DNA from: an uncultured Actinoplanes sp.
GTDB lineage: Bacteria > Actinomycetota > Actinomycetes > Mycobacteriales > Micromonosporaceae
Direction: 5' to 3'
Assembly: GCA_934643405.1 (NCBI GenBank)
Contig: CAKUCL010000006.1
Location: 2,714-66,713, forward strand
DNA: 64,000 nucleotides
The position numbers were made by a program, and so were the translations under genes. This document shows, piece by piece, positions 9,372 to 42,600 of this stretch. Position 1 is the stretch's first letter. Every line of letters starts with the position of its first letter. The notes below the pieces were generated by a model that was not told where the DNA came from, searched no databases, and worked only from the letters and a program-made list of their open reading frames with translations.

Positions 9372-12263
9372 ATGCGCTATCCAGAAGCCCATGCGGCCAC
9401 GAGCGGCTCGGTTCCGTTCACGCTGCGTGGCCCGAAATCCGTGCGGGTGGCACTGACCGCCGCACTCGCGGGCGCGATAGGTCTCGTGCCCGCACTCTTC
9501 GTAGCGTCACCGGCCATGGCCGCGCCGACGGCAGCCGACGACCTCAGCTGGACCGCCAGCTCCACGACGGTCAACGAGGGTGACACCGCGTCGCTCGAGC
9601 TGAACTGGACGGGCACCGGAACGAACGGGTCGACGGTATCGACGGCCCTGACCTACAGCACCGCGGACGGTTCGGCCAACCAGGGTTCCGACTACACCGC
9701 TGTGTCCGCGGCGCCGATCACCTTCACCGGTGGCAAGGCGACGCTCTCGGTCAAGGCCCTGACCGACAATTCGGACGAGCCTTCGCCCGAGACGGTCTCG
9801 GTGAAGGTGTACGACTCCGCGGCGCCGTCGACCGTCCTGGCGACGGGAACGATCAACATCACGGACATCGACGCCGAGCCGACCTACACCTTCACCGCCG
9901 ACAAGACGTCGGTCGCGGAGGACGGCGGCCCGGTCACCGTCACGGCGACGCTGGGCGCGAAGTCGGGCAAGACGGTGACGATCCCGTACTACACCGGCGA
10001 CGTGTCGGCGAAGGCCGGTCAGGACTACGGGAACACCAGCGGCAACCTGGTCTTCAACCCGGGCGATCTGACCAAGACCTTCACCGTCGCGATCACCAAC
10101 GACGACCTGTACGAGGGTGAGAACCAGACCTTCACGATCAACGCCAGCCCCACGGCCGGCGTCGCGGCCACCGCCGCGCCGATCACGGTCACCATCACCG
10201 ACAACGACCCGATGCCGAAGGTGTCGATCGGCAACGCGTCGGCCGTCAACGAGGGCTCCAACCTGCAGTTCCCGGTAACCGCCGTGGGCAAGGCCGAGAA
10301 GGACATCACGGTCAAGTACACGACGGCGGACGCCACCACGCCGGCCACGAACCACAACGCGGCCACCGCTCCCGCCGACTACACGGCGGTCTCGGCGGGC
10401 ACGGTGACGATCCCGGCGGGCACCCTCGGCCCGGTGAACGCCTCGGTGATCACGAAGGCGGACAACCTCGACGAGCTGGCGGAGGACCTCACGGTCACGC
10501 TGTCCACTCCGTCGTCGAACGCGTCCATCGACACCACGGCGGTCACGGCGACCGGTGTCATCAACGACTACGGCAGCTCCTACCCGGTGGCGAGCCTGAC
10601 CACCGCCTCCAAGAAGGTGGACGAGGGCAGCGACGGGTCGCACCCGGTGACGTTCACGGTCCAGCTGAACGCCGCCTCCGGTCGCTCGCAGTCCGTCGAC
10701 TGGACGGCCGCGGCGAACAGCTCGGCGTCGGCGACCTCGCCGGCCGACTTCAAGGCCACGACCGGCACGGTCACCTTCGCCCCGGGCGAGCTGACCAAGT
10801 CCTTCACGGTCGACGTGGTCGGGGACAAGATCGACGAGTACCCGGACGAGACCTTCACCATCACCCTGGCGACGACCACCGGCAGCACGGTCACGACCAG
10901 TGGTAACGCCCAGGGCAACATCACGATCACCGACGACGACGCGGCGCCGACCGTGACCCTCGCCGACGTGAGCCAGGCCGAGGGCGACTACAACTCGGTT
11001 GCCCTGTTCACGGTCAAGCTGTCGAACCCGTCGGACGTCAACACGACGTACGACATCACGACCACCGACGTGACCGCCGACTCGGACGCGACCGGTGCCG
11101 GCGCGGCGTCCAACACGGCCGGCGTGGGCAACAGCGACTACAACCTGGCGGGCGCGCTCGTCACGATCCCGGCCGGCAGCACCACGGGCTACGCGTTCGT
11201 GGTCGTCAACGGTGACGACGTCTACGAGACCGCGGAGACCGCCACCATCACGGCGACTCCGAACCAGAACAAGACCCGGCTGGCCAAGCCGGACGCCGTC
11301 AAGGCCACGCTCACGCTGACCAACGACGACGACGCTCCGGTCTTCACCATCCTGTCCGACAAGGGCAAGGAGGGCGACACCCTCGCGGCCAAGGCCGTCG
11401 TGACCGGCGTCGCGCAGGACAACGGGTACGTGAACGTCAGCTTCATGGGTGGTCGTTACGAGGGCAGCGTCGCTGCCACCGAGGACGACTACAAGGTGCC
11501 GGACACCAAGTCGTACACCGTCTACGGCGGCACCAAGGAAGGCACGTACTACGACCTCGGCAACGTCGTGCTGAACAAGGACGAGTACAAGGAGCCCGCG
11601 GAGACGATCATCGTTTCCGGCACCAGCTTCGGCGGCTCGCCCGTGGTCAAGAACGGCGTGCTCACCATCGAGGCGAACGAGGGCGGCAAGCCCGACGAGC
11701 CCGGCGAGCCGAGCGAGCACTACGCGCCCACCATCGAGGCGCCGTACAAGGTCGTCGGTGCGGTGGCCGTGCCGATCAAGGGCAAGGCCGAGGCCGGTGC
11801 CACGGTCGAGCTCTGGGGCGCGCCGGTCGGCGAGGACTCCGACCTGAAGTGGATCGCCAACACCAAGGCGGACAAGGACGGTTACTACTGGTTCTCGCGT
11901 TGGATCAACGAGGGCTACCGCTTCGTGACGCAGTCCTACGAGAAGAACTCCAAGGAAGTCAAGGTCTGGGTGGAGCAGGACCCGTACTTCACGGCCGTCT
12001 CCTACTCGAAGGGCTACCTGACCCTGACCGTGCAGGGCAACCCAAAGGGTGCCAAGCAGGCGGTGATCATCCAGCGCTGGTACGACGGCAAGTGGGTCAA
12101 CGTCACCGGCTGGAAGGGCTACACGGGCAGCAACTACCAGTGGAAGGCCACGGTGAAGGCGGCCTCGAAGTCGTACTGGACGCTGCGGGCCTTCGTTGCC
12201 GGCTACACGCCGGACGGCCTGCTGCCGGGCTACTCGGACGCCAAGAAGGTCACCATCAAGTAA
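9372..12263 (+). CDS. Secreted multi-Calx-beta-domain surface protein with C-terminal Ig-like region
   Basis: Signal peptide (ALFVASPAMAAP). About 6 tandem ~100-aa Calx-beta-like units, each with NEGD/EG...(G)SDY...F..G...K.F.V....D...E..E.F. The C-terminal ~200 aa are beta-rich. Confidence 0.85.
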   Translation: MRYPEAHAATSGSVPFTLRGPKSVRVALTAALAGAIGLVPALFVASPAMAAPTAADDLSWTASSTTVNEGDTASLELNWTGTGTNGSTVSTALTYSTADGSANQGSDYTAVSAAPITFTGGKATLSVKALTDNSDEPSPETVSVKVYDSAAPSTVLATGTINITDIDAEPTYTFTADKTSVAEDGGPVTVTATLGAKSGKTVTIPYYTGDVSAKAGQDYGNTSGNLVFNPGDLTKTFTVAITNDDLYEGENQTFTINASPTAGVAATAAPITVTITDNDPMPKVSIGNASAVNEGSNLQFPVTAVGKAEKDITVKYTTADATTPATNHNAATAPADYTAVSAGTVTIPAGTLGPVNASVITKADNLDELAEDLTVTLSTPSSNASIDTTAVTATGVINDYGSSYPVASLTTASKKVDEGSDGSHPVTFTVQLNAASGRSQSVDWTAAANSSASATSPADFKATTGTVTFAPGELTKSFTVDVVGDKIDEYPDETFTITLATTTGSTVTTSGNAQGNITITDDDAAPTVTLADVSQAEGDYNSVALFTVKLSNPSDVNTTYDITTTDVTADSDATGAGAASNTAGVGNSDYNLAGALVTIPAGSTTGYAFVVVNGDDVYETAETATITATPNQNKTRLAKPDAVKATLTLTNDDDAPVFTILSDKGKEGDTLAAKAVVTGVAQDNGYVNVSFMGGRYEGSVAATEDDYKVPDTKSYTVYGGTKEGTYYDLGNVVLNKDEYKEPAETIIVSGTSFGGSPVVKNGVLTIEANEGGKPDEPGEPSEHYAPTIEAPYKVVGAVAVPIKGKAEAGATVELWGAPVGEDSDLKWIANTKADKDGYYWFSRWINEGYRFVTQSYEKNSKEVKVWVEQDPYFTAVSYSKGYLTLTVQGNPKGAKQAVIIQRWYDGKWVNVTGWKGYTGSNYQWKATVKAASKSYWTLRAFVAGYTPDGLLPGYSDAKKVTIK

Positions 12264-34016: not shown

Positions 34017-35348
34017 TCAATGGGCCACGGCCACCGCGGGGGCGGTCGTGTCGGCGGGGAGCTGCCGGGGGCGCACCACCAGCCACAGCACGACGTTCGC
34101 GGCGAGCATGCCGAGCACCACCACCGCGGCCATGGCGTTCGCACCGACACCGAACGCGCCGACCAGCGGAGCCGCGAGAGCGCCCACGCCGAACTGGGTC
34201 GCGCCGAGCAGGGCCGCCGCGGTGCCGGCCGCCTCGCCGTGCCGGGACAGCGCCAATGCCGGCGCGTTCGGCATCGCCAGGCCGACCGTGGCCAGCGCCG
34301 CCCAGAGCGGGATCAGGATGCCGGCCAGGCCGCCGAACCCGGTCTGCGCGTCGGCCAGCAGCACACCGCCGGCGACCAGGCCGGCCAGCAGCGCCACGGC
34401 CAGGATGTGCTGCGGCGGGAAGCGGCGCAGCAACCGCACGTTGAGCTGGGTGGCCGCGATCAGTCCGACGGCCCCTCCGGCGAAGACGTACGCGAACTGT
34501 TGCTCGCTCATCCCGAACTCCTCCTGGAAGACGAAGGAGGAGCCGCTCACGTAGGCGAACAGGGCCGCCATCGCCAGGCCGCCGACCAGGATCAGCCCGA
34601 CGTAGACGCGATCGGTGAACAACCGGCCGTAGTCGCGGACCGTGCCGGCCACGCCGCCGCTGCGCCGCCGGTCCCGCGGCAGCGTCTCGGGCAGGGACAG
34701 CGCGGTCGCCGTCATGATCGCGACGCCGACCACGGTGAGCACCACGAAGACGCCGCGCCACGAGCTCCAGTTCAGCACCAGGCCGCCGATCGTCGGGGCC
34801 AGGATCGGCGCCACCCCGATGACCAGCATCAGGCGGGAGAGCAGCTTCGCGGCGGCCAGCCCGGAGAAGAGGTCACGCACCACGGCCATGGCGACCACGG
34901 CGGCCGCGGCGGCGCCCAGGCCCTGCAGGACGCGCAGTGTGCCGAGGGTGGTGAGGTTCGGCGCGAGCACGCAGAGGACGGATGCCAGCACGTGCACGGC
35001 GACGCCGGCCAGTAGCGGGAGCCGCCGCCCGACCGCGTCGGAGAGCGGTCCGACCAGCAGCTGCCCGAGGCCCAGGCCGACCAGGGTGCCGGTCAGCGTG
35101 AGCTGCACGGCCGCCGCGCCTGCGTGCAGATCGACGGCGATCGTGGGCAGCGACGGCAGGTACATGTCGATGGTCAGCGGGCCGAGCGCGGAGAGGAAGC
35201 CGAGGACGAGGGCCATCCGCAGGCGGCGCGCCGCGGACAGCGGCTGCGCCGGAGCGGGGTCCCCGGGTAAGGAATCGATGGCGGGAAGGATGTCAGCTGT
35301 GGGGGCAGACTCGCGCACGAAGAAGCACAAGGGCCCCCGTGCCAGCAT
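34017..35348 (-). CDS. MFS drug-resistance transporter (Bcr/CflA subfamily)
   Basis: 12-TM profile with N-terminal LGFLSALGPLTIDMYLPSLP typical of Bcr/CflA. Exact start uncertain. Confidence 0.85.
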   Translation of the reverse strand: MLARGPLCFFVRESAPTADILPAIDSLPGDPAPAQPLSAARRLRMALVLGFLSALGPLTIDMYLPSLPTIAVDLHAGAAAVQLTLTGTLVGLGLGQLLVGPLSDAVGRRLPLLAGVAVHVLASVLCVLAPNLTTLGTLRVLQGLGAAAAAVVAMAVVRDLFSGLAAAKLLSRLMLVIGVAPILAPTIGGLVLNWSSWRGVFVVLTVVGVAIMTATALSLPETLPRDRRRSGGVAGTVRDYGRLFTDRVYVGLILVGGLAMAALFAYVSGSSFVFQEEFGMSEQQFAYVFAGGAVGLIAATQLNVRLLRRFPPQHILAVALLAGLVAGGVLLADAQTGFGGLAGILIPLWAALATVGLAMPNAPALALSRHGEAAGTAAALLGATQFGVGALAAPLVGAFGVGANAMAAVVVLGMLAANVVLWLVVRPRQLPADTTAPAVAVAH

Positions 35349-35369
35349 GATTCCGCAGCGTAATGGTGG

Positions 35370-35650
35370 TCACACGGAAAGTGCCGTGACCGACTCCATC
35401 AGCTTCCGGCCGGTGGCGACCTCGTACAGCCGCAGCTGGTAGGTGGCCTGGCGCATCGACACCTTGTCCGGTTCCGGGTCGGCGTAGCTGCACTTCTTCA
35501 CCTCGGCGCCGGAGCTCACCAGGTCGACGCAGGCGACCAGCTGCACCTTGGCCGGGTCCCGCGGTAGTACCACTGGTCGCAGACGCGGGCGAGATCGTCG
35601 GCCCCGCGCACCGGGTGCGACAGGGCATGGGCGCCTGGGCCGGCGGCGGG
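35370..35650 (-). pseudogene. Frameshifted remnant of an unknown protein gene
   Basis: A GC3-rich frame encodes ..ADDLARVCDQWYY. This switches by 1 nt near 35560-35575 into ..DPAKVQLVACVDLVSSGAEVKKCSYADPEPDKVSMRQATYQLRLYEVATGRKLMESVTALSV*. No credible N-terminus or signal is present. Confidence 0.3.
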
Positions 35651-35776
35651 CGAGAGGGGCGGCCCGACTTGCCCGCGGCACCTACGTGTGCTCCGTCGCC
35701 TGTGCTCGCGGTCACGGCCCGGGTCGTGCAAGGCTGGTGACTTCCGTGGTCCGCGAGCGAGTGATGAGGACATGGC

Positions 35777-36946
35777 ATGGGCATGGTCAAGGTCGTCGGG
35801 TTGGTGCTGCATCCGCGGCGCGACTGCGGCGCGGCGATCGACGCGATCGTGTCCTGGGCGGCACGGCGCGGGGTGACCGTGCTGGGCCTCCACGACGAGA
35901 TCACCCGGATCGACTGTGAGGCGGTCGCGGTCAGCCAGGAGGAGATGATCGAGCGGGCCGGCCTGCTGGTCAGCCTCGGCGGTGACGGCACCATGCTGCG
36001 CACGATGCGGCTGGTCGAGGGCCGCAAGACGCCGGTGCTCGGGGTCAACGTGGGCCGGCTGGGCTTCCTCGCCGAGGTGGACCTGCCGGACCTGCCGGAG
36101 GCGCTGTCCGCGATCGACGAGCACAAGTTCACCATCGAGCCGCGCACCGCCGTCCGCACGCTGCTGCCGGACGGCAGGGACGTCTCGGCGTTCAACGACA
36201 TCGCTCTGGTCCGGGTGCCCGGCGACGGCCTGGCCGCGGTCGGCATCTCGGTCGAGAGCAAGAACTTCGTCAACTACGCGGCCGACGCGGTCATCGTGGC
36301 CACCCCCACCGGTTCGACGGCGTATTCGTTCTCGGCCGGCGGCCCGATCGTCTCACCCAACGTGGAGGGCCTGATCGTCACCGCCGCGGCCGCGCACTCC
36401 TCGTTCAACCGGCCGCTGATGCTGGCCCTGCAGGAGCGACTCGAACTCGACGTGCTGCCCACCAGCGGCCGACTCGCCATTGAGGTGGACGGCATCATCG
36501 AGGGCTACGCGGGCCCCGACGACCGGCTGACCATCGAACCGATCCCGGCCGCCGCCCAGGTGATCCGGCTCGGCAACACGTCGTTCTACGAGCGGGCCCG
36601 CCGCAAGCTGCGGGTCGAGGGCAGCGCCCAGGTCGGCGTGCCCGACTCGTCCGAGGCGACCGTGGTCGACAGCTTCGAGCGCCAGCGCTACGAGGTGCTC
36701 ATCGGCGGCGAGGTGGCCGGCGTGCTGCACTACCGCCGGTATCCCTCGCACATCGAGCTCATGCACACCGAGGTCGAACAGTCCTTCTCCGGCCGGGGGC
36801 TGGCCAGCCGGCTCGCCTCCGCGGCCCTGGACGACGCCCGCACCCGGGCGACCCCCGTCGTCGTCACCTGTCCCTTCGTCATCGGATTCCTGGACCGCCA
36901 CCCCGAGTACACCGACCTGCTGGCCGACCCCAACTCAACAAGCTGA
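35777..36946 (+). CDS. nadK: NAD kinase fused to a C-terminal YjdJ-type GNAT-fold domain
   Basis: NADK motifs LVSLGGDGTMLR, NDIALV, ATPTGSTAYSFSAGGPIV. The last ~95 aa (YEVLIGGEVAGVLHYRR..IELMHTEVEQSFSGRGLASRLASAALDDAR...VVVTCPFVIGFLDRHPEY) look like the stand-alone YjdJ-like GNAT proteins. Confidence 0.85.
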   Translation: MGMVKVVGLVLHPRRDCGAAIDAIVSWAARRGVTVLGLHDEITRIDCEAVAVSQEEMIERAGLLVSLGGDGTMLRTMRLVEGRKTPVLGVNVGRLGFLAEVDLPDLPEALSAIDEHKFTIEPRTAVRTLLPDGRDVSAFNDIALVRVPGDGLAAVGISVESKNFVNYAADAVIVATPTGSTAYSFSAGGPIVSPNVEGLIVTAAAAHSSFNRPLMLALQERLELDVLPTSGRLAIEVDGIIEGYAGPDDRLTIEPIPAAAQVIRLGNTSFYERARRKLRVEGSAQVGVPDSSEATVVDSFERQRYEVLIGGEVAGVLHYRRYPSHIELMHTEVEQSFSGRGLASRLASAALDDARTRATPVVVTCPFVIGFLDRHPEYTDLLADPNSTS

Positions 36947-36957
36947 GGTAAGAACCC

Positions 36958-38616
36958 ATGGGCCACCCCGCGATCCTGACCGTCGACGATGACCCTTCGG
37001 TCTCCCGGGCGATCGCCCGGGACCTGCGCCGCAAGTACGGAGAGCAGTACCGCATCCTGCGCGCCTCCTCGGCCGCCGAGGCCCTCGAGGCGCTGCGCGA
37101 GATCAAGCTTCGTGGCGCGCGCGTCGCCGTCATGCTGGCCGACTACCGGATGCCGCAGATGAACGGCATCGAGTTCCTGGAACAGGCGATGGACCTGTTC
37201 CCCCACGCGCGGCGGGCGCTGCTCACCGCGTACGCCGACACCGACGCGGCGATCCAGGCGATCAACGTGGTCGACGTGGACCACTACCTGCTCAAGCCGT
37301 GGGACCCGCCGGAGGAGAAGCTCTACCCGGTGATCGACGCGCTGCTCGACGCCTGGGAGGCGACCGGCGACCGCGAGCTGGAGGACATCCGGGTCGTCGG
37401 GCACCGGTGGAGCGAGCCGTCGTACCAGATCCGGGACTTCCTGGCGCGCAACCTGGTGCCGTACAAGTGGCTGGGCGCCGACGAGCCGGAGGGCCGCCGC
37501 CTGCTCGACGCGGCCGGCATGGGTCCCGAGTCGATCCCGCTGGTGGTGACCGCGGACGGGCGGGCGCTGGCGCACCCGACCACCACCGAGGTGGCCGAGG
37601 CGGCCGGGTTGTCCACCGCGCCCGGCCGCGACTTCTACGACCTGATCATCGTGGGCGGCGGCCCGGCCGGGCTCGGCGCCGCGGTCTACGGCGCCTCCGA
37701 GGGGCTCAGGACGCTGCTGGTCGAGCGCACCGCGGTGGGCGGCCAGGCCGGGCAGAGCTCGCGCATCGAGAACTACCTGGGCTTCCCCGACGGCATCTCC
37801 GGCGCGCAGCTGACCGACCGGGCCCGCCGCCAGGCCGGCAAGTTCTCCGCCGAGGTGCTCAACACCCGCGAGGTGACCGGGCTGCGGCCGGACGGCTCGG
37901 CCCGCACGCTGACGTTCGCCGACGGCGGGGAGGTGTCCGCGCACGCCGTGGTGCTCGCGACCGGCGTCGCGTACCGCCCGCTGGCGGCGGAGGGCGTCGC
38001 CGAGCTGACCGGCTCGGGCGTCTACTACGGCTCGGCGGCGACCGAGGGGCCGGCCTGCGCGGGCGCGGACGTCTACATCGTCGGCGGCGCGAACTCCGCC
38101 GGGCAGGCCGCGCTGTTCTTCTCCCGCTACGCCAAATCGGTCACTCTGCTCGTACGGGGCGACGCGCTCGAATCGTCGATGTCGTACTACCTGATCCAGC
38201 AGCTGAACAGGACTTCGAACATCAACGTCCGCACCCGGTGCGAGGTGATCCGCGCGCAGGGCGACGGGCACCTGCAGGCCATCACCATCTGCGACAGCAA
38301 GAACAACCACGAGGTCACGGTCGAGTGCGGGGCACTGTTCGTGTTCATCGGCGCCGAACCCCGTACGGACTGGTTGGGAGACGCCGTGGCCCGCGACGAA
38401 CGCGGCTTCGTCTACACCGGGCCCGATCTTCTGTTGAACGGATCACGTCCGAAGGGATGGGATCGGGAGCGCGATCCGTTCTACCTGGAGTGCAGTGTTC
38501 CCGGCATCTTCGCCGCCGGCGACGTCCGGGCCAACTCGGTCAAACGGGTGGCCTCGGCGGTCGGCGAGGGCGCGATGGCCGTCACGCTGGTCCATCGTTA
38601 CCTGGAGGGGCAGTAA
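36958..38616 (+). CDS. Response-regulator receiver fused to a Cys-less Grx-like linker and a thioredoxin-reductase-like FAD/NAD(P) flavoprotein
   Basis: REC (TVDDDPSV..MLADYRMPQMNG..YLLKPW). FAD site IIVGGGPAGLGAAVYGASEG, NAD(P) site VYIVGGANSAGQAALFF, GIFAAGDVR. No CxxC is present at the TrxR redox-site position. Confidence 0.85.
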   Translation: MGHPAILTVDDDPSVSRAIARDLRRKYGEQYRILRASSAAEALEALREIKLRGARVAVMLADYRMPQMNGIEFLEQAMDLFPHARRALLTAYADTDAAIQAINVVDVDHYLLKPWDPPEEKLYPVIDALLDAWEATGDRELEDIRVVGHRWSEPSYQIRDFLARNLVPYKWLGADEPEGRRLLDAAGMGPESIPLVVTADGRALAHPTTTEVAEAAGLSTAPGRDFYDLIIVGGGPAGLGAAVYGASEGLRTLLVERTAVGGQAGQSSRIENYLGFPDGISGAQLTDRARRQAGKFSAEVLNTREVTGLRPDGSARTLTFADGGEVSAHAVVLATGVAYRPLAAEGVAELTGSGVYYGSAATEGPACAGADVYIVGGANSAGQAALFFSRYAKSVTLLVRGDALESSMSYYLIQQLNRTSNINVRTRCEVIRAQGDGHLQAITICDSKNNHEVTVECGALFVFIGAEPRTDWLGDAVARDERGFVYTGPDLLLNGSRPKGWDRERDPFYLECSVPGIFAAGDVRANSVKRVASAVGEGAMAVTLVHRYLEGQ

Positions 38617-38619
38617 CCC

Positions 38620-40086
38620 ATGAGTGACACCGACGAGGTCCGGCTCGTTCCCTGCGAACCCGGCCGGTTGAAACCCGACGAGCTGCGCACACTGTTCCTG
38701 TTCGAGAAGCTGACCGATGAGCAGCTTCAGTGGATCTCCGAGCACGGCTGCACCATGCACATGCCGGCCGGTGGCATGGTGGTCCGCGAGGGTGATCCCG
38801 CGGAGCAGTTCTTCGTCCTGCTCAGCGGCACCATCGCGCTGTACCGCCGGGTCGGCCAGGACGACGTCCAGACCACCCGCACCGAGCAGCGCGGCGTGTA
38901 CATGGGCGCCACCCAGGCATATCTGCGCGACGACGGCGTCCCGCGCAGCTACATGGCCAGCATGCGGGCGCTCGACGACTCCGACTTCTTCGTGCTCTCC
39001 GCCGCGGACTTCGGCCACCTCATGCGCGAGTGGTTCCCGATGGCGATCCACCTGCTCGAGGGCCTCACCCTCGGGATGCGGGACCGGGCCGCGGCCATCA
39101 ACACCCGGCAGCGGCTCGCCGCGCTCGGCGCCCTGTCCGCAGGCCTCATGCACGAGCTGAACAACCCGGCCGCGGCCGCCTCCCGGGCCACCGCCTCGCT
39201 GCGCCAGCGGGTCGCCGGCATGCGCCACAAGCTGGGCATGCTCGCCGCCGGCAAGGTGCCGCCGGACCGTCTGGTGGCGCTGGTCGAGCTCCAGGAGGAG
39301 GTCATCGAGCGGGCCGCGAAGGCCGCGCCGCTGACCGCCATGGAGACCGCCGACCGCGAGGACGAGCTCGGCGAGTGGATGGAGGAGCGCAACGTCACCG
39401 GCGGCTGGGACCTGGCCGCGGTCTTCGCCCAGGGCGGACTCGACCTGGAGTGCCTCAACCAGATCGAGACCAAGGTCGGCTCCCCCGAACTGCTCGACCA
39501 GGCGATCCACTGGATCGGCTACGCGCTGGAGACCGAGCAGCTGATGAGCGACATCGAGGACGCCACCGGCCGGGTGTCGTCGCTGGTGAGCGCGGCCAAG
39601 CAGTACTCGCAGATGGACCGCGCCGCGCACCAGTGGATCGACGTGCACGGCGGTCTGGACAGCACGCTGGTGATGCTGACCCACAAGATCGGCAGCGGGG
39701 TCAAGGTGGTCAAGGAGTACGACCGGTCGCTGCCGCAGATCCCGGCCCACCCGGCCGAGCTGAACCAGGTCTGGACGAACCTCATCGACAACGCGGTGCA
39801 GGCGATGAACGGCGTGGGCACGCTGACCATCCGCACGTCCCGCGACGACGACAACGTGGTGGTCACCATCGAGGACACCGGGCCGGGCATCCCGCCGGAG
39901 CTGAAGAAGCGCGTCTTCGAGCCGTTCTTCACCACCAAGCCGGTGGGCGAGGGGACCGGCCTGGGTCTGGACATCTCCTACCGGATCGTGGTCAACGGCC
40001 ACGGCGGCGACATCTCCGTGGAGTCGACGCCGGGTGACACCAGGTTCAAGGTGTCGCTGCCGTTGTCGGAGCCGGCTTCGGCCTAG
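38620..40086 (+). CDS. Soluble cyclic-nucleotide-binding-domain histidine kinase
   Basis: N-terminal cNMP-binding-like beta-barrel (LFEKLTDEQL...VVREGDPAEQFFVLLSG...PRSYMASMRAL). H-box HELNNPAAA. N/G boxes NLIDNAVQAM, DTGPGIPPE, GTGLGLDIS. No TM segments. Confidence 0.85.
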   Translation: MSDTDEVRLVPCEPGRLKPDELRTLFLFEKLTDEQLQWISEHGCTMHMPAGGMVVREGDPAEQFFVLLSGTIALYRRVGQDDVQTTRTEQRGVYMGATQAYLRDDGVPRSYMASMRALDDSDFFVLSAADFGHLMREWFPMAIHLLEGLTLGMRDRAAAINTRQRLAALGALSAGLMHELNNPAAAASRATASLRQRVAGMRHKLGMLAAGKVPPDRLVALVELQEEVIERAAKAAPLTAMETADREDELGEWMEERNVTGGWDLAAVFAQGGLDLECLNQIETKVGSPELLDQAIHWIGYALETEQLMSDIEDATGRVSSLVSAAKQYSQMDRAAHQWIDVHGGLDSTLVMLTHKIGSGVKVVKEYDRSLPQIPAHPAELNQVWTNLIDNAVQAMNGVGTLTIRTSRDDDNVVVTIEDTGPGIPPELKKRVFEPFFTTKPVGEGTGLGLDISYRIVVNGHGGDISVESTPGDTRFKVSLPLSEPASA

Positions 40087-41092
40087 GGTCTGGCGACCGG
40101 GATCCCGGTGGTGCGGAGGCGAAGATGTTCAGCCCGAGGCTCCGGGAGAGGAAGGCGGCGGCGCGCTGCCCGCGGATGCTGTTGCCGGCCGGGTCGAGCA
40201 GCGGTGAATAGCTGCCGATCCCGGCCTTGCCGGGCGAGATCGTCACGAGGCCGCCCGCGACCCCCGACTTGCCCGGCAGCCCGATCTCGTACAGCCACTC
40301 CCCGGATCGCTCGTAGAGGCCGCTCGCGGCGAGCATCGCCAGCGTGTCGCGGGCGACCTCGGCCGAGACGACCCGCTCCCGTGTCACCGGGTTGACGCCG
40401 CCGTCGGCGAGCGTCGCTCCCATCACGGCGAGGTCGTGCGCGGTCACCAGCAGGGAGCACTGCCTGGTGTAGACATCGACCAGGCCGAGCGGATCGAGGG
40501 AGATTCGCCCGTAGCTCTCCAGCAGCCGGGCGATCGCGTGGTTGCGCTGGTTGGTCCGGGCCTCCGACCGGCGGACCACGTCATCCACCTCGAGGTCGTG
40601 CCCGGCGAACCGGGACAGCCCGGCGGCGAGGTATTTCCACTGCTCGTCGAAGGTGCTGCCGGGGATCAGCGCGGTCGTCGCCAGCGCGCCCGCGTTCACC
40701 ATGGGGTTCATGGGATGCCCGGCGTTGATCTCGATGGCCATCACCGAGTCGAAGGCCAGGCCGGTGTTGTTCACCCCGACGCGATCGAGTACCGCGTCGT
40801 GCCCGATCGCGTCGCACACCAGCGCGAAGACGAAAGCCTTCGAGATGGACTGGATCGAGAAACGCACCTCGGCGTCGCCGGCATCGTGGACGCCGCCGCC
40901 GACCTCGACCACCGCGAGCCCGAACGATGCCGGATCGGCCTCGGCGAGCACCGGGATGTAGTCGGCCACCGCGCCGCCGCCCACCAGGCGGTTGCGTTCG
41001 TACGCCGCCTGCGTCAGCGCCTCGACGTCCGCCCACGGGGGAAGCCGTCCGGTGGACACCTGCTGGTCAGCGTCGTTGACCTGGAATCCCAT
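40046..41092 (-). CDS. glsA: Glutaminase A
   Basis: Serine-beta-lactamase-like glutaminase signature (SIQSISKAFVF, NPMVNAGA, GKSGVAGG). Its 3' end overlaps the convergent kinase gene by 41 nt. Confidence 0.9.
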   Translation of the reverse strand: MGFQVNDADQQVSTGRLPPWADVEALTQAAYERNRLVGGGAVADYIPVLAEADPASFGLAVVEVGGGVHDAGDAEVRFSIQSISKAFVFALVCDAIGHDAVLDRVGVNNTGLAFDSVMAIEINAGHPMNPMVNAGALATTALIPGSTFDEQWKYLAAGLSRFAGHDLEVDDVVRRSEARTNQRNHAIARLLESYGRISLDPLGLVDVYTRQCSLLVTAHDLAVMGATLADGGVNPVTRERVVSAEVARDTLAMLAASGLYERSGEWLYEIGLPGKSGVAGGLVTISPGKAGIGSYSPLLDPAGNSIRGQRAAAFLSRSLGLNIFASAPPGSRSPDPRPKPAPTTAATP

Positions 41093-42096: not shown

Positions 42097-42600
42097 CTAA
42101 CGGAGCAGGCCGCGCACGTACGCGGCCTGCCCCACGTGCTGGGCGTCGTCGTCGATGACGCTCACCAGCCGTACGCCCAAGGTGACCGGGGGATCCCACG
42201 CCTCGTCGACCACCCGGTCCAGGTCGTCGGCCGTCAGGCCGCGCACGTAGCGCATCGTGCGCTCGTGCACGGCGTGGTAGTAGTCCTCCAGGGCCCGCGC
42301 GCTCTCCGGCCGCAGCGTCGCGACCTGCGCGGGCGAATGACCGTACCCGGTGTCGTCCGGGTCGGCCTTGAGACCGAACCGTGCCGCCCAGGCGCCGGTG
42401 ACGTAGATCTGCTCCTCGTCGAGCAGTTCGGACAGGTGGCCGTCCTGCACCCGGGTCAGGTGCCAGACCAGCCAGCCGATCGGGTTGGCGCCGTCGGCCG
42501 GGGCCCAGCGCAGCTGCTCGGGGGAGAGGCCACGAACCGCGTGGTGCACGTTGGCGGGGAGCCGTTCGAAGCCGTCGATGAGGATGTTCTTGGCGTCCAT
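42097..42600 (-). CDS. DinB-family (mycothiol-transferase-like) protein
   Basis: 167 aa with four-helix DinB pattern (NPIGWLVWHLTRVQD ... DDAQHVGQAAYVRG). Confidence 0.8.
   Translation of the reverse strand: MDAKNILIDGFERLPANVHHAVRGLSPEQLRWAPADGANPIGWLVWHLTRVQDGHLSELLDEEQIYVTGAWAARFGLKADPDDTGYGHSPAQVATLRPESARALEDYYHAVHERTMRYVRGLTADDLDRVVDEAWDPPVTLGVRLVSVIDDDAQHVGQAAYVRGLLR

Follow-up and report, generated by a model that had tools for sequence, protein, structure and literature searches.

Among response regulators whose output is an enzyme, those that turn over c-di-GMP and those that act as methylesterases or phosphatases are well understood. We know of no response regulator that switches a pyridine-nucleotide flavoenzyme. 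Candidates for such a protein are found in genome censuses. Those based on P2CS and P2RP recognize a "TrxB" class of response regulators and list the Streptomyces coelicolor proteins SCO7298 (response regulator) and SCO7297 (histidine kinase) as an unnamed pair, while Galperin's census describes a "Mycobacterium-like" fusion of a receiver (REC) domain to thioredoxin reductase (TrxR). One thermophilic cyanobacterium in census data has exactly one TrxB-type response regulator and one histidine kinase with a cNMP_binding domain. The architecture is called "Fused response regulator/thioredoxin-disulfide reductase" in UniRef, and individual members are named "thioredoxin reductase (NADPH)" (JGI and some NCBI records) or "trxB3" (S. 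coelicolor). In these papers, the class is a database label, for which no function, ligand, or activity is reported. Expression of SCO7298 rises in response to acid shock and to polysulfide, with the polysulfide response being independent of AdpA.

Here, we describe a member of this class encoded in a 64,000-nucleotide (nt) stretch of DNA from an uncultured Actinoplanes sp. (contig CAKUCL010000006.1), referred to below as the window. The locus consists of three open reading frames (ORFs) on the same strand, with spacers of 11 nt (ORF1–ORF2) and 3 nt (ORF2–ORF3).

35777–36946, + strand: ORF1, NAD kinase (NADK) fused to a GNAT domain (NADK-GNAT), 389 aa
36958–38616, + strand: ORF2, TrxB-type response regulator, 552 aa
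38620–40086, + strand: ORF3, soluble histidine kinase, 488 aa

Like the SCO7298/SCO7297 pair, ORF2 combines a receiver with a pyridine-nucleotide-disulfide-oxidoreductase domain and adjoins a classic kinase, which makes it a member of the TrxB-type class; SCO7298 is the presumed ORF2 orthologue by database class alone. The NADK-GNAT gene, in contrast, is specific to the Actinoplanes group. The core unit is a two-gene response regulator/kinase cassette rather than a three-gene system, and the locus is probably a cytoplasmic TrxB-type two-component system with a phosphorylation-gated NAD(P)H oxidoreductase as its output, to which an NADK-GNAT gene has been added in the Actinoplanes lineage. The loss of both CxxC motifs from the regulator, its glutaredoxin-like domain, and its near-universal kinase partner with a cyclic nucleotide (cNMP)-binding fold are new relative to the papers searched.

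An earlier note on the window had proposed much of this anatomy, and the three same-strand ORFs with their short gaps (ORF coordinates), the NAD kinase motifs and extra YjdJ-type GNAT domain of ORF1 (Pfam, motif check, and PDB match), and the description of ORF3 as a histidine kinase that lacks transmembrane segments and has a cNMP-like input domain and N/G boxes (Pfam, hydropathy, and motif check) all held. The same is true of ORF2, which was described as a receiver joined by a Cys-less glutaredoxin-like linker to a two-dinucleotide-fold flavoprotein (Pfam, profile, and model) with FAD and NAD(P) glycine motifs but no CxxC (alignment to TrxRs and motif check), and as a receiver with an enzyme-type output instead of a DNA-binding domain (domain anatomy). 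The note knew of no assigned function for the three-gene combination and put it forward as a candidate for an undescribed system. No experimentally assigned function was found in the literature searched, in agreement with the note, but the architecture of the response regulator has already been catalogued (P2CS/P2RP, UniRef, Galperin).

Conservation of the Response Regulator–Kinase Pair

One genome per GTDB species was scanned with a degenerate pattern, which identified 589 relatives of ORF2. The closest 80 of these 589, which are 49–89% identical to ORF2 and nearly all aligned over the full length, provide the loci for every count out of 80 given here, and kinase neighbors were located by tblastn with ORF3 sub-domains. 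The 80 loci comprise about 57 from Actinomycetota, 8 from Cyanobacteriota, 9 from Acidobacteriota, and 3 from Chloroflexota, as well as single loci from Caballeronia (Pseudomonadota), Pedobacter (Bacteroidota), and Dormibacterota. A kinase adjoins the regulator in 78 of the 80 loci; it follows the regulator on the same strand in 77 of them and directly precedes it in the remaining one. In the two exceptions, the kinase is 2.6 kb away or absent. The junction between the two genes is no longer than 100 nt in 71 of the 75 loci where it could be measured and no longer than 20 nt in 62, and the genes share a 4-nt start/stop overlap in 37. The pair thus spans seven phyla among the 80 closest relatives, which include Streptomyces, Mycobacterium, Nocardia, Nostoc, and soil Acidobacteriota. 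This survey bears out the pairing of ORF2 with ORF3 that the earlier note had suggested; its question of whether the neighborhood is conserved beyond this genome receives a divided answer, as the pair is widely conserved and the triad with NADK is limited to 5/80 loci. Two paralogous kinases with a cNMP fold stand near a single regulator in Mycolicibacterium, two cyanobacteria, and Caballeronia (L047:9644–12547, L055:12276–15137, L058, and L067:6086–7048).

The wider family was examined among 1.84 billion cluster representatives, where the module formed by the glutaredoxin-like and TrxR-like domains is a mobile output, found behind a canonical receiver, behind degenerate receivers, fused to a cNMP-fold domain, or alone. 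The best 150 cluster representatives at 50% identity all belong to the family. Kinase neighbors were absent from all seven inspected members outside the clade with canonical receivers; one further non-canonical member, at a contig end, was uninformative. Six of these seven kinase-less members have degenerate receivers that have lost D62 or T90 (ORF2 numbering), and in the seventh (P0171) T90 is replaced, although the protein still matches Pfam Response_reg. The one cNMP-fused member inspected likewise had no kinase neighbor. Because the kinase is missing beside the non-canonical members inspected, an intact receiver accompanies an adjacent kinase, as a genuine His-Asp relay predicts. Pseudo-receivers are common in the family (P0127, P0130, P0137, P0141, P0146, and others); they keep the REC fold with D62 changed to Ala, Gly, or Ser and T90 changed to Val or Ile, often have a conserved Trp at position 92, and had no kinase neighbor in those inspected.

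The Response Regulator

ORF2 contains three domains:

36967–37317, + strand: receiver, residues ~4–120 (Pfam Response_reg at 6–118)
37378–37605, + strand: glutaredoxin/mycoredoxin-like domain, residues ~141–216 (profile against the PDB, model topology)
37633–38610, + strand: two-Rossmann flavoprotein module, residues about 226–551 (Pfam Pyr_redox_2 at 227–538)

The receiver, whose nearest REC families are RpfG/NtrC-like, contains the acidic residues DDD10–12, the phospho-acceptor D62 (nt 37141–37143), T90, and K113. D62, T90, and K113 are retained in all 80 homologues, and D10 and D11 are both retained in 79.

The linker between receiver and flavoprotein spans roughly 100 residues, and its domain was identified by a profile search of the PDB, in which the best match was mycoredoxin-1 (2lqo, E 8.8e-7), followed by the N-terminal domains of glutathione S-transferases (GSTs) and by glutaredoxins. 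Secondary structure assigned by DSSP to the AlphaFold2 model gives a β-α-β-α-β-β-α topology over residues 144–215. The fold, the cis-Pro loop, and the conserved Trp that precedes the active-site position are common to the linker and to mycoredoxin-1 (Rv3198A) and the glutaredoxins, and the cis-Pro-type P194 is present in 80/80 homologues. The active site differs in that S-x-x-S stands in ORF2 in place of CGYC, with the WCGYC of mycoredoxin-1 aligned to WSEPS (W151–S155). Of the 80 homologues, 75 retain S152 and 68 retain S155. Due to this replacement, neither dithiol nor monothiol exchange is possible in the linker.

The flavoprotein module has the FAD motif GGGPAG (residues 233–238) and the NAD(P)H motif GGANSAG (residues 376–382), which are invariant or nearly so in the family, and a GGQ...NY.GF block that is invariant among the homologues. 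In the AlphaFold2 model of ORF2 (mean predicted local distance difference test score, pLDDT, 91.6; predicted TM-score, pTM, 0.85), Foldseek superimposes the module, with TM-scores of 0.92–0.95 and root-mean-square deviations of 1.5–2.2 Å, on TrxR structures (5mh4, 3cty, 3r9u) that are in the flavin-reducing (FR) state. The two-Rossmann FAD/NAD(P)H fold is common to ORF2 and TrxB (TIGR01292), with 28–31% identity, and ORF2 is distinguished from TrxB by its missing CxxC, a degenerate 2'-phosphate motif, and the additional REC and glutaredoxin-like domains. The positions of the TrxR cysteines align with G358 (Gly in 80/80) and T362 (Thr or Ser in 76/80), and neither Cys is present in any of the 80 homologues. 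The HRRxxxR motif that contacts the 2'-phosphate reads V-R-G-D-A-L-E in ORF2, leaving R400 as the sole remaining Arg of three; R400 is kept in 80/80, the second position is Gly or Ala, and the third is variable.

These observations bear on the annotation of ORF2 as a true thioredoxin reductase that depends on NADPH and is regulated through its receiver. The database names cited above point to such an enzyme, and TrxRs are the best matches to ORF2 in the PDB by both sequence and fold. The absence of CxxC from every one of the close homologues already contradicts it, however, as do the score of 216.6 bits against TIGR01292, far below the cut-off of 343.45, the reduction of HRRxxxR to a single Arg, and the lack of cysteines in the glutaredoxin-like domain as well. 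Because both redox disulfides have been lost (SxxS in the linker; G...T in the module), ORF2 cannot be a thioredoxin-disulfide reductase. This assignment was rejected for its missing CxxC and is highly improbable; judged from the sequence, the names "thioredoxin reductase (NADPH)" and "trxB3" are wrong for this class.

Two other groups of flavoproteins can be compared with ORF2. AhpF, like ORF2, has a thioredoxin-fold domain N-terminal to a TrxR-like flavoprotein, and it gives the top Foldseek E-value over ~590 aligned columns. The similarity has limits, as the global TM-score is just 0.39–0.41, the AhpF model TIGR03140 scores ORF2 at 165.7 bits against a cut-off of 502.9, and AhpF, which reduces AhpC, contains two thioredoxin folds with CxxC and a further CxxC in its NADH domain, whereas ORF2 has one glutaredoxin fold. 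The Cys-less, TrxR-like ferredoxin-NADP+ reductases (FNRs), such as YumC and the Chlorobaculum enzyme, have the TrxR fold without CxxC and pass electrons from NAD(P)H through FAD to a non-disulfide acceptor. By analogy, the YumC-type enzymes may serve as a working model for ORF2 function. Their sequence matches to ORF2 in the PDB (E 1e-18 to 1e-12) are much weaker than those of TrxRs (1e-44), and they lack the REC and glutaredoxin-like domains.

Residual thiol chemistry could be provided by C367 (nt 38056–38058), the sole conserved Cys of the kinase-linked clade (77/80), which is located five residues past the second TrxR Cys position on the helix where TrxRs have their CxxC. ORF2 might be a single-Cys reductase analogous to CoA-disulfide reductase or YpdA/Bdr, using C367 to act on a low-molecular-weight-thiol mixed disulfide or on persulfide/polysulfide sulfur, with the Ser-type glutaredoxin-like domain binding the thiol substrate. 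The glutaredoxin-like profile also matches Ser-type GST N-terminal domains, SCO7298 responds to polysulfide independently of AdpA and to acid shock, and a mycothiol-S-transferase/DinB gene is found nearby in both the window and Nucisporomicrobium, all of which are consistent with this proposal. On the other side, C367 is kept in just 36 of 132 sequences of the wider family, the family spans phyla with different low-molecular-weight thiols, and the YpdA model scores ORF2 at 57 bits against a cut-off of 340. A single-Cys reductase is consequently considered quite doubtful.

A further alternative is that the TrxR-like module is non-catalytic and functions as a flavin/NAD(P)H redox sensor or a scaffold, with the regulator acting through protein contacts or as a phosphate sink. 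The complete loss of thiol chemistry from the protein and the lack of an obvious substrate-related gene in the cassette are in keeping with this proposal, as is the recurrence in 27/80 loci of a gene for a Cys/His-rich zf-UBP protein (described below), which could be the contact partner. The Actinoplanes and cyanobacterial proteins are 54–58% identical to each other, with strong conservation of the nucleotide motifs and the surroundings of the TrxR active site. Such conservation is more typical of an enzyme, and the same module also occurs without any sensor domain. A catalytic oxidoreductase is favored because the scaffold, with its invariant dinucleotide motifs and its identity to the cyanobacterial proteins, is under strong purifying selection, and a non-catalytic role is thought unlikely.

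The Soluble Histidine Kinase

The following regions were assigned in ORF3, where CNB denotes cyclic nucleotide-binding and DHp denotes dimerization and histidine phosphotransfer:

38674–39090, + strand: sensor, residues ~19–157, CNB/CRP-type β-barrel with a C-helix running into the DHp
39106–39615, + strand: DHp region, helix 1 with H178 (nt 39151–39153), insert, and helix 2 (residues 289–332)
39262–39477, + strand: DHp insert, residues 215–286, four-helix domain at the hairpin tip, pLDDT 80–94
39631–40062, + strand: catalytic ATP-binding (CA) domain with N, G1, and G2 boxes (HATPase_c)

Pfam recognizes cNMP_binding (PF00027) at residues 47–136 (42.7 bits against a cut-off of 27.5) and HATPase_c at residues 378–483 (E 2.6e-27). 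The H-box reads MHELNNP and contains H178, which is invariant in 71/71 kinases, and the boxes of the CA domain read NLIDNA, DTGPGIP, and GEGTGLGL; the CA domain resembles those of CckA, ZraS, HK853, and ThkA. The Pfam HisKA model does not match ORF3, because an insert of ~75 residues splits the DHp. This insert was found by tblastn (with the query "HKmid") in nearly all related loci, and it could provide a site at which the regulator or the zf-UBP protein docks. The maximum Kyte-Doolittle hydropathy over 19 residues is 0.86, indicating that ORF3 has no membrane segment. The AlphaFold2 model of ORF3 was computed as a monomer with an alignment of database homologues; the DHp has low confidence, which is to be expected when a dimer is modeled as a single chain, and Foldseek confirms the kinase core alone.

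The modeled sensor has β-strands over residues 44–127 followed by the C-helix. In cNMP receptors, the phosphate-binding cassette has the form Gly-Glu ... Arg-[Ser/Thr]-Ala (PROSITE PS00889). The corresponding region of ORF3 reads QRGVYMGATQAYLRDDGVPRSYMASMRA, a non-canonical cassette in which Y-M-G-A ... P-R-S-Y-M-A, with extra residues, takes the place of [F/L]-G-E and R-[ST]-A. The Gly-Glu pair is absent from the actinobacterial kinases of the family, and neither the kinase family nor the cNMP-fused variants conserve the cassette Arg. The fused variants share F-G-E-x-P with the cyanobacterial and proteobacterial kinases, without the cassette Arg. These one-component relatives carry the same glutaredoxin-like and TrxR-like module as ORF2 (47–57% identity) behind an N-terminal cNMP-fold domain that resembles the sensor of the non-actinobacterial kinases; unlike in ORF2/ORF3, the sensor is fused directly to the module and no phosphorelay intervenes.

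The earlier note had regarded the locus as a cytosolic second-messenger-gated phosphorelay. The cytosolic kinase stands, as ORF3 has no transmembrane segment, but gating by a second messenger is called into question by the cassette. In its full form, this reading holds that the three genes are one unit in which a cyclic nucleotide (cAMP or cGMP) signals through ORF3 to ORF2 while ORF1 supplies NADP and senses acyl-CoA. The match to Pfam cNMP_binding is above the gathering score, and the profile of the kinase-family sensor, which matches PKG, PKA, Epac, CRP, and DNR, reaches the PKG/PKA regulatory domains with E-values of 1e-29 to 1e-20. Class III cyclases also stand beside distant members of the flavoprotein family (L089 and L092), and the one-component relatives join a cNMP fold directly to the flavoprotein module. 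Several results point the other way. The cassette is non-canonical (M-G-A, R-S-Y), with its Arg conserved in neither the kinases nor the fused variants, and in a PDB search with the sensor sequence by itself the top match is DNR (E 7.5e-9), a member of the CRP/FNR family that does not sense cNMP. Moreover, NADK adjoins the pair in only 5/80 genomes, and the GNAT fusion is found in one lineage. Gating by cAMP or cGMP is unsupported because the sensor lacks the phosphate-binding Gly-Glu/Arg signature; the class III nucleotide cyclases beside two distant family members speak for a cyclic nucleotide. We regard a cyclic nucleotide as an improbable ligand of the sensor, and the three-gene, cyclic nucleotide-gated system as similarly improbable.

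The NAD Kinase–GNAT Fusion

ORF1 is divided into two parts:

Residues 1–~290, + strand: kinase part, NAD(+)/NADH kinase paralogue
36686–36919, + strand: Acetyltransf_CG (PF14542, YjdJ-type GNAT), residues 304–381 (Pfam)

The kinase part matches Pfam NAD_kinase (E 7e-15) and NAD_kinase_C (E 1e-22), and its GGDGTMLR, NDIA, and TPTGSTAY motifs are intact. The match to Acetyltransf_CG is full-length, covering profile positions 1–80 of 80 with 78.6 bits against a cut-off of 30. Sequence matches in the PDB are Mycobacterium tuberculosis PpnK (E 3e-33) and Escherichia coli YjdJ (5i0c), and the protein is 100% identical to a database entry named "NAD(+)/NADH kinase [uncultured Actinoplanes sp.]". For ORF2, an exact-sequence search gave no match, and the protein is 88–92% identical to Actinoplanes and Paractinoplanes proteins; together these matches assign the window to an uncultured Actinoplanes genome. 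ORF1 unites the catalytic motifs of NAD kinase with a complete GNAT domain of the YjdJ/NATD1 type. It differs from PpnK in scoring below the cut-off of every NCBIfam NAD-kinase equivalog model (best score 173.6 bits against 299), which makes it a divergent paralogue and not the housekeeping PpnK. To our knowledge, no activity has been assigned to the YjdJ-type GNAT domain (Acetyltransf_CG), its type members included. The acyl-CoA-sensing role suggested for this domain in ORF1 is pure conjecture.

The five loci in which NADK adjoins the pair are three from Actinoplanes/Paractinoplanes, where it carries the GNAT domain, and one each from Dactylosporangium and Microbispora, where it does not. The Dactylosporangium gene is upstream of the pair, and the Microbispora gene starts 10 nt past the kinase stop. 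Both proteins are 67–69% identical to ORF1 and stop at precisely the point from which the Actinoplanes proteins extend into the GNAT domain. Of the Actinoplanes-type genomes, five were examined, and in each of them NADK-GNAT adjoins the pair. The GNAT fusion is present in every one of the best 120 relatives of ORF1, and those with a name belong to Actinoplanes-like genera or to unclassified metagenome-assembled genomes; among the relatives listed, the fusion is limited to Actinoplanes, Paractinoplanes, and Nucisporomicrobium. In Nucisporomicrobium, the cassette takes a four-gene form in the order NADK-GNAT, zf-UBP, response regulator, and histidine kinase. No NADK was found beside the pair in Micromonospora (a member of the same family), Streptomyces, Nocardia, Mycobacterium, or any of the non-actinobacterial loci. 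Three genes acting as one system, as the earlier note had it, are not supported by this comparison, because NADK accompanies so few of the pairs and the GNAT fusion is confined to one lineage.

It is conceivable that NADK-GNAT is a mere neighbor that was captured by chance in an ancestor of Actinoplanes and has no functional relation to the pair, and its absence from 75 of the 80 loci agrees with such a history. However, the NADKs beside the pair belong to the same clade (67–69% identity, far closer than to the housekeeping PpnK models) in three groups of genera, two gene orders, and gaps of 10–11 nt, and the arrangement is kept across Actinoplanes, Paractinoplanes, and Nucisporomicrobium. Chance capture is thus the less probable account, although it merits more weight than the other alternatives considered here. 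That a single NADK clade recurs beside the pair in two different gene orders, and with such tight spacing, argues for a real but optional functional link, and the rarity of the association shows that NADK is not part of the core mechanism.

Other Conserved Neighbors

A more common accessory than NADK is a gene for a small, Cys/His-rich zf-UBP protein (PF02148, about 75–103 aa), which is the third gene of the cassette in 27/80 loci. It usually directly follows the kinase, lies between NADK-GNAT and the response regulator in some Actinoplanes-like genomes, and is also present at Chloroflexota loci and one cyanobacterial locus. The genes were located as follows:

zf-UBP genes: L081:7203–7496; L002:4188–4475; L007:1944–2231; L092:7230–7541
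zf-UBP after the kinase, at about 11100–11460: L013, L014, L020, L021, L023–L025, L027, L030, L032–L036, L039, L040, L065
Further zf-UBP loci: L016, L018, L031, L046, L060, L062, L064, L078

A tblastn search of the window gave no zf-UBP match below E 0.01; this variant has lost a zf-UBP gene that is present in sister genera. The zf-UBP gene was revealed by the table of called genes and targeted tblastn and was missed when flanking stop-to-stop ORFs of at least 90 aa were clustered, an approach that detected nothing conserved beyond the pair and NADK. Re-clustering with ORFs of at least 45 aa added nothing, as shadow frames dominate in DNA of 70% G+C. Neighbor clusters of ABC transporters, sigma-70 factors, short-chain dehydrogenase/reductase or hydrolase proteins, major facilitator superfamily (MFS) transporters, and epimerases were rejected as partners, being generic and lineage-bound.

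Two distant loci have neighbors of other kinds. In a distant flavoprotein branch with a degenerate receiver, a class III adenylate/guanylate cyclase follows at a 5-nt gap (L089:1922–3295). In L092 (4001–7541), an overlapping operon encodes the flavoprotein, a truncated globin (Bac_globin, 120 aa), a class III cyclase, and a zf-UBP protein, and a stand-alone Acetyltransf_CG gene is located 3 kb upstream. These neighbors suggest that cNMP synthesis and the reduction of haem proteins are related themes.

Proposed Mechanism

The anatomy of ORF2 and ORF3 suggests the following mechanism. First, the CNB/CRP-fold sensor of ORF3, a soluble and presumably dimeric kinase, would bind a small molecule from the cytosol, probably one other than cAMP or cGMP, and the C-helix of the sensor would set the autophosphorylation of His178. 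Next, the phosphoryl group would be transferred from His178 of ORF3 to Asp62 of ORF2. The output of ORF2 would be an AhpF-like module, in which a glutaredoxin-fold domain precedes a TrxR-type FAD/NAD(P)H flavoprotein and from which both disulfides have been lost, and the receiver may control the domain arrangement or dimer state of the protein. ORF2 would most likely function as a phosphorylation-gated NAD(P)H:acceptor oxidoreductase, with another nicotinamide, a quinone, O2, a metalloprotein, or a haem protein as the candidate acceptor. Finally, NADK-GNAT appears to be translationally coupled upstream, so that NADP(H) synthesis would change in step with the ORF2 enzyme. The gene anatomy, the motif losses, the conservation of the pair, the correlation of an intact receiver with a kinase neighbor, and the narrow distribution of NADK and GNAT are observed; the direction of signaling, the enzyme activity, the acceptor, and any functional tie to NADP are inferred.

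A bolder version of this proposal can be formulated, in which the cassette represents a new functional class of two-component system, with redox chemistry in place of transcription as its output. A phosphorylation-gated, thiol-free glutaredoxin–TrxR flavoenzyme would draw electrons from NAD(P)H and deliver them to an acceptor other than a disulfide. With a second nicotinamide as acceptor, it would be a regulated transhydrogenase or oxidase; alternatively, the acceptor could be a protein containing haem or metal, for example the truncated globin or the zf-UBP protein of related operons. In Actinoplanes, the enzyme would be wired to a dedicated NADK-GNAT so that the NADP(H) pool and NADPH use answer one cytosolic signal. 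Taken with all of these particulars, this version is speculative and is unlikely to be correct as it stands.

Several points weigh against a phosphorylation-gated oxidoreductase linked to NADP. The nucleotide preference is not readable from the sequence, with just R400 of the three 2'-phosphate Arg residues kept. Some thiol chemistry is possible because C367 (77/80) lies one helical turn past the former CxxC. The flavoprotein might be a sensor rather than the output. The absence of NADK from 75/80 loci means that the NADP link is not intrinsic to the system. In addition, the literature searched, which omits most subscription journals, yielded no biochemistry, genetics, or structural work for any member of the class, with the expression data for SCO7298 standing alone; for cNMP–TrxR fusions, NADK-GNAT fusions, and SCO7297/SCO7298, only censuses and expression data were found there.

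What emerges is more general than the system first proposed in that a conserved two-component system has a thiol-free flavoenzyme as its putative output, and the window contains an Actinoplanes-specific variant. Identification of the substrate and signal would assign a function to a sizeable and widely conserved protein family and would correct a systematic mis-annotation ("thioredoxin reductase"/"trxB3") in studies of redox biology. Direct post-translational control of NAD(P)H flux could emerge from such work, for which the NADK-GNAT variant of Actinoplanes provides the clearest experimental handle on the NADP link.

Locus Layout and Flanking Genes

The non-coding parts of the locus were assigned as follows, where SD denotes Shine-Dalgarno:

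35349–35776, + strand: upstream intergenic region, bounded by ORF1 and a divergent MFS transporter gene and presumed to hold the promoter and 5' leader
36944–36957, + strand: ORF1–ORF2 junction with stop codon, 11-nt spacer, and SD-like GAGG (tGAGGt overlapping the ORF1 stop)
38603–38619, + strand: ORF2–ORF3 junction with SD-like GGAGGGG within the end of ORF2, TAA stop, and 3-nt spacer

A GAGG is located 7 nt 5' of the ORF1 ATG, and the GGAGGGG lies ~10 nt 5' of the ORF3 ATG. A promoter scan gave no sigma-70-type match in 35349–35776, and a terminator scan gave no terminator-like site at the ORF1–ORF2 or ORF2–ORF3 junction; the two sites that it did return are both within ORF2 and compare with a chance expectation of 0.9 ± 1.0. 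An Rfam scan of 35200–40300 identified no element, with two sub-threshold matches to eukaryotic families being dismissed. The G+C content of the operon region (67–74%) is similar to that of its surroundings. An operon-like layout of the three genes is supported. None of the PADLOC defense-system models matched the three ORFs or the zf-UBP protein.

ORF3 runs at its 3' end 41 nt (40046–40086) into the 3' end of a convergent glutaminase gene (40046–41092, − strand), with no terminator-like site between the convergent ends. In the intergenic region 5' of ORF1, a minus-strand ORF remnant is present at 35370–35681. It has no Pfam match, gene callers give just a 58-aa product, and its C-terminal half is protein-like while its N-terminal half resembles GC-rich noise; this remnant may be a decayed gene. 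Farther downstream, a gene of the DinB/mycothiol-S-transferase family (42097–42600, − strand) is followed by one for a 250–253-aa protein of no assigned family. The same gene order is found in Nucisporomicrobium (L081:12383–12883), at 2–3 kb downstream of the cassette in both genomes, and this shared neighbor could reflect either local synteny or a thiol-related link.

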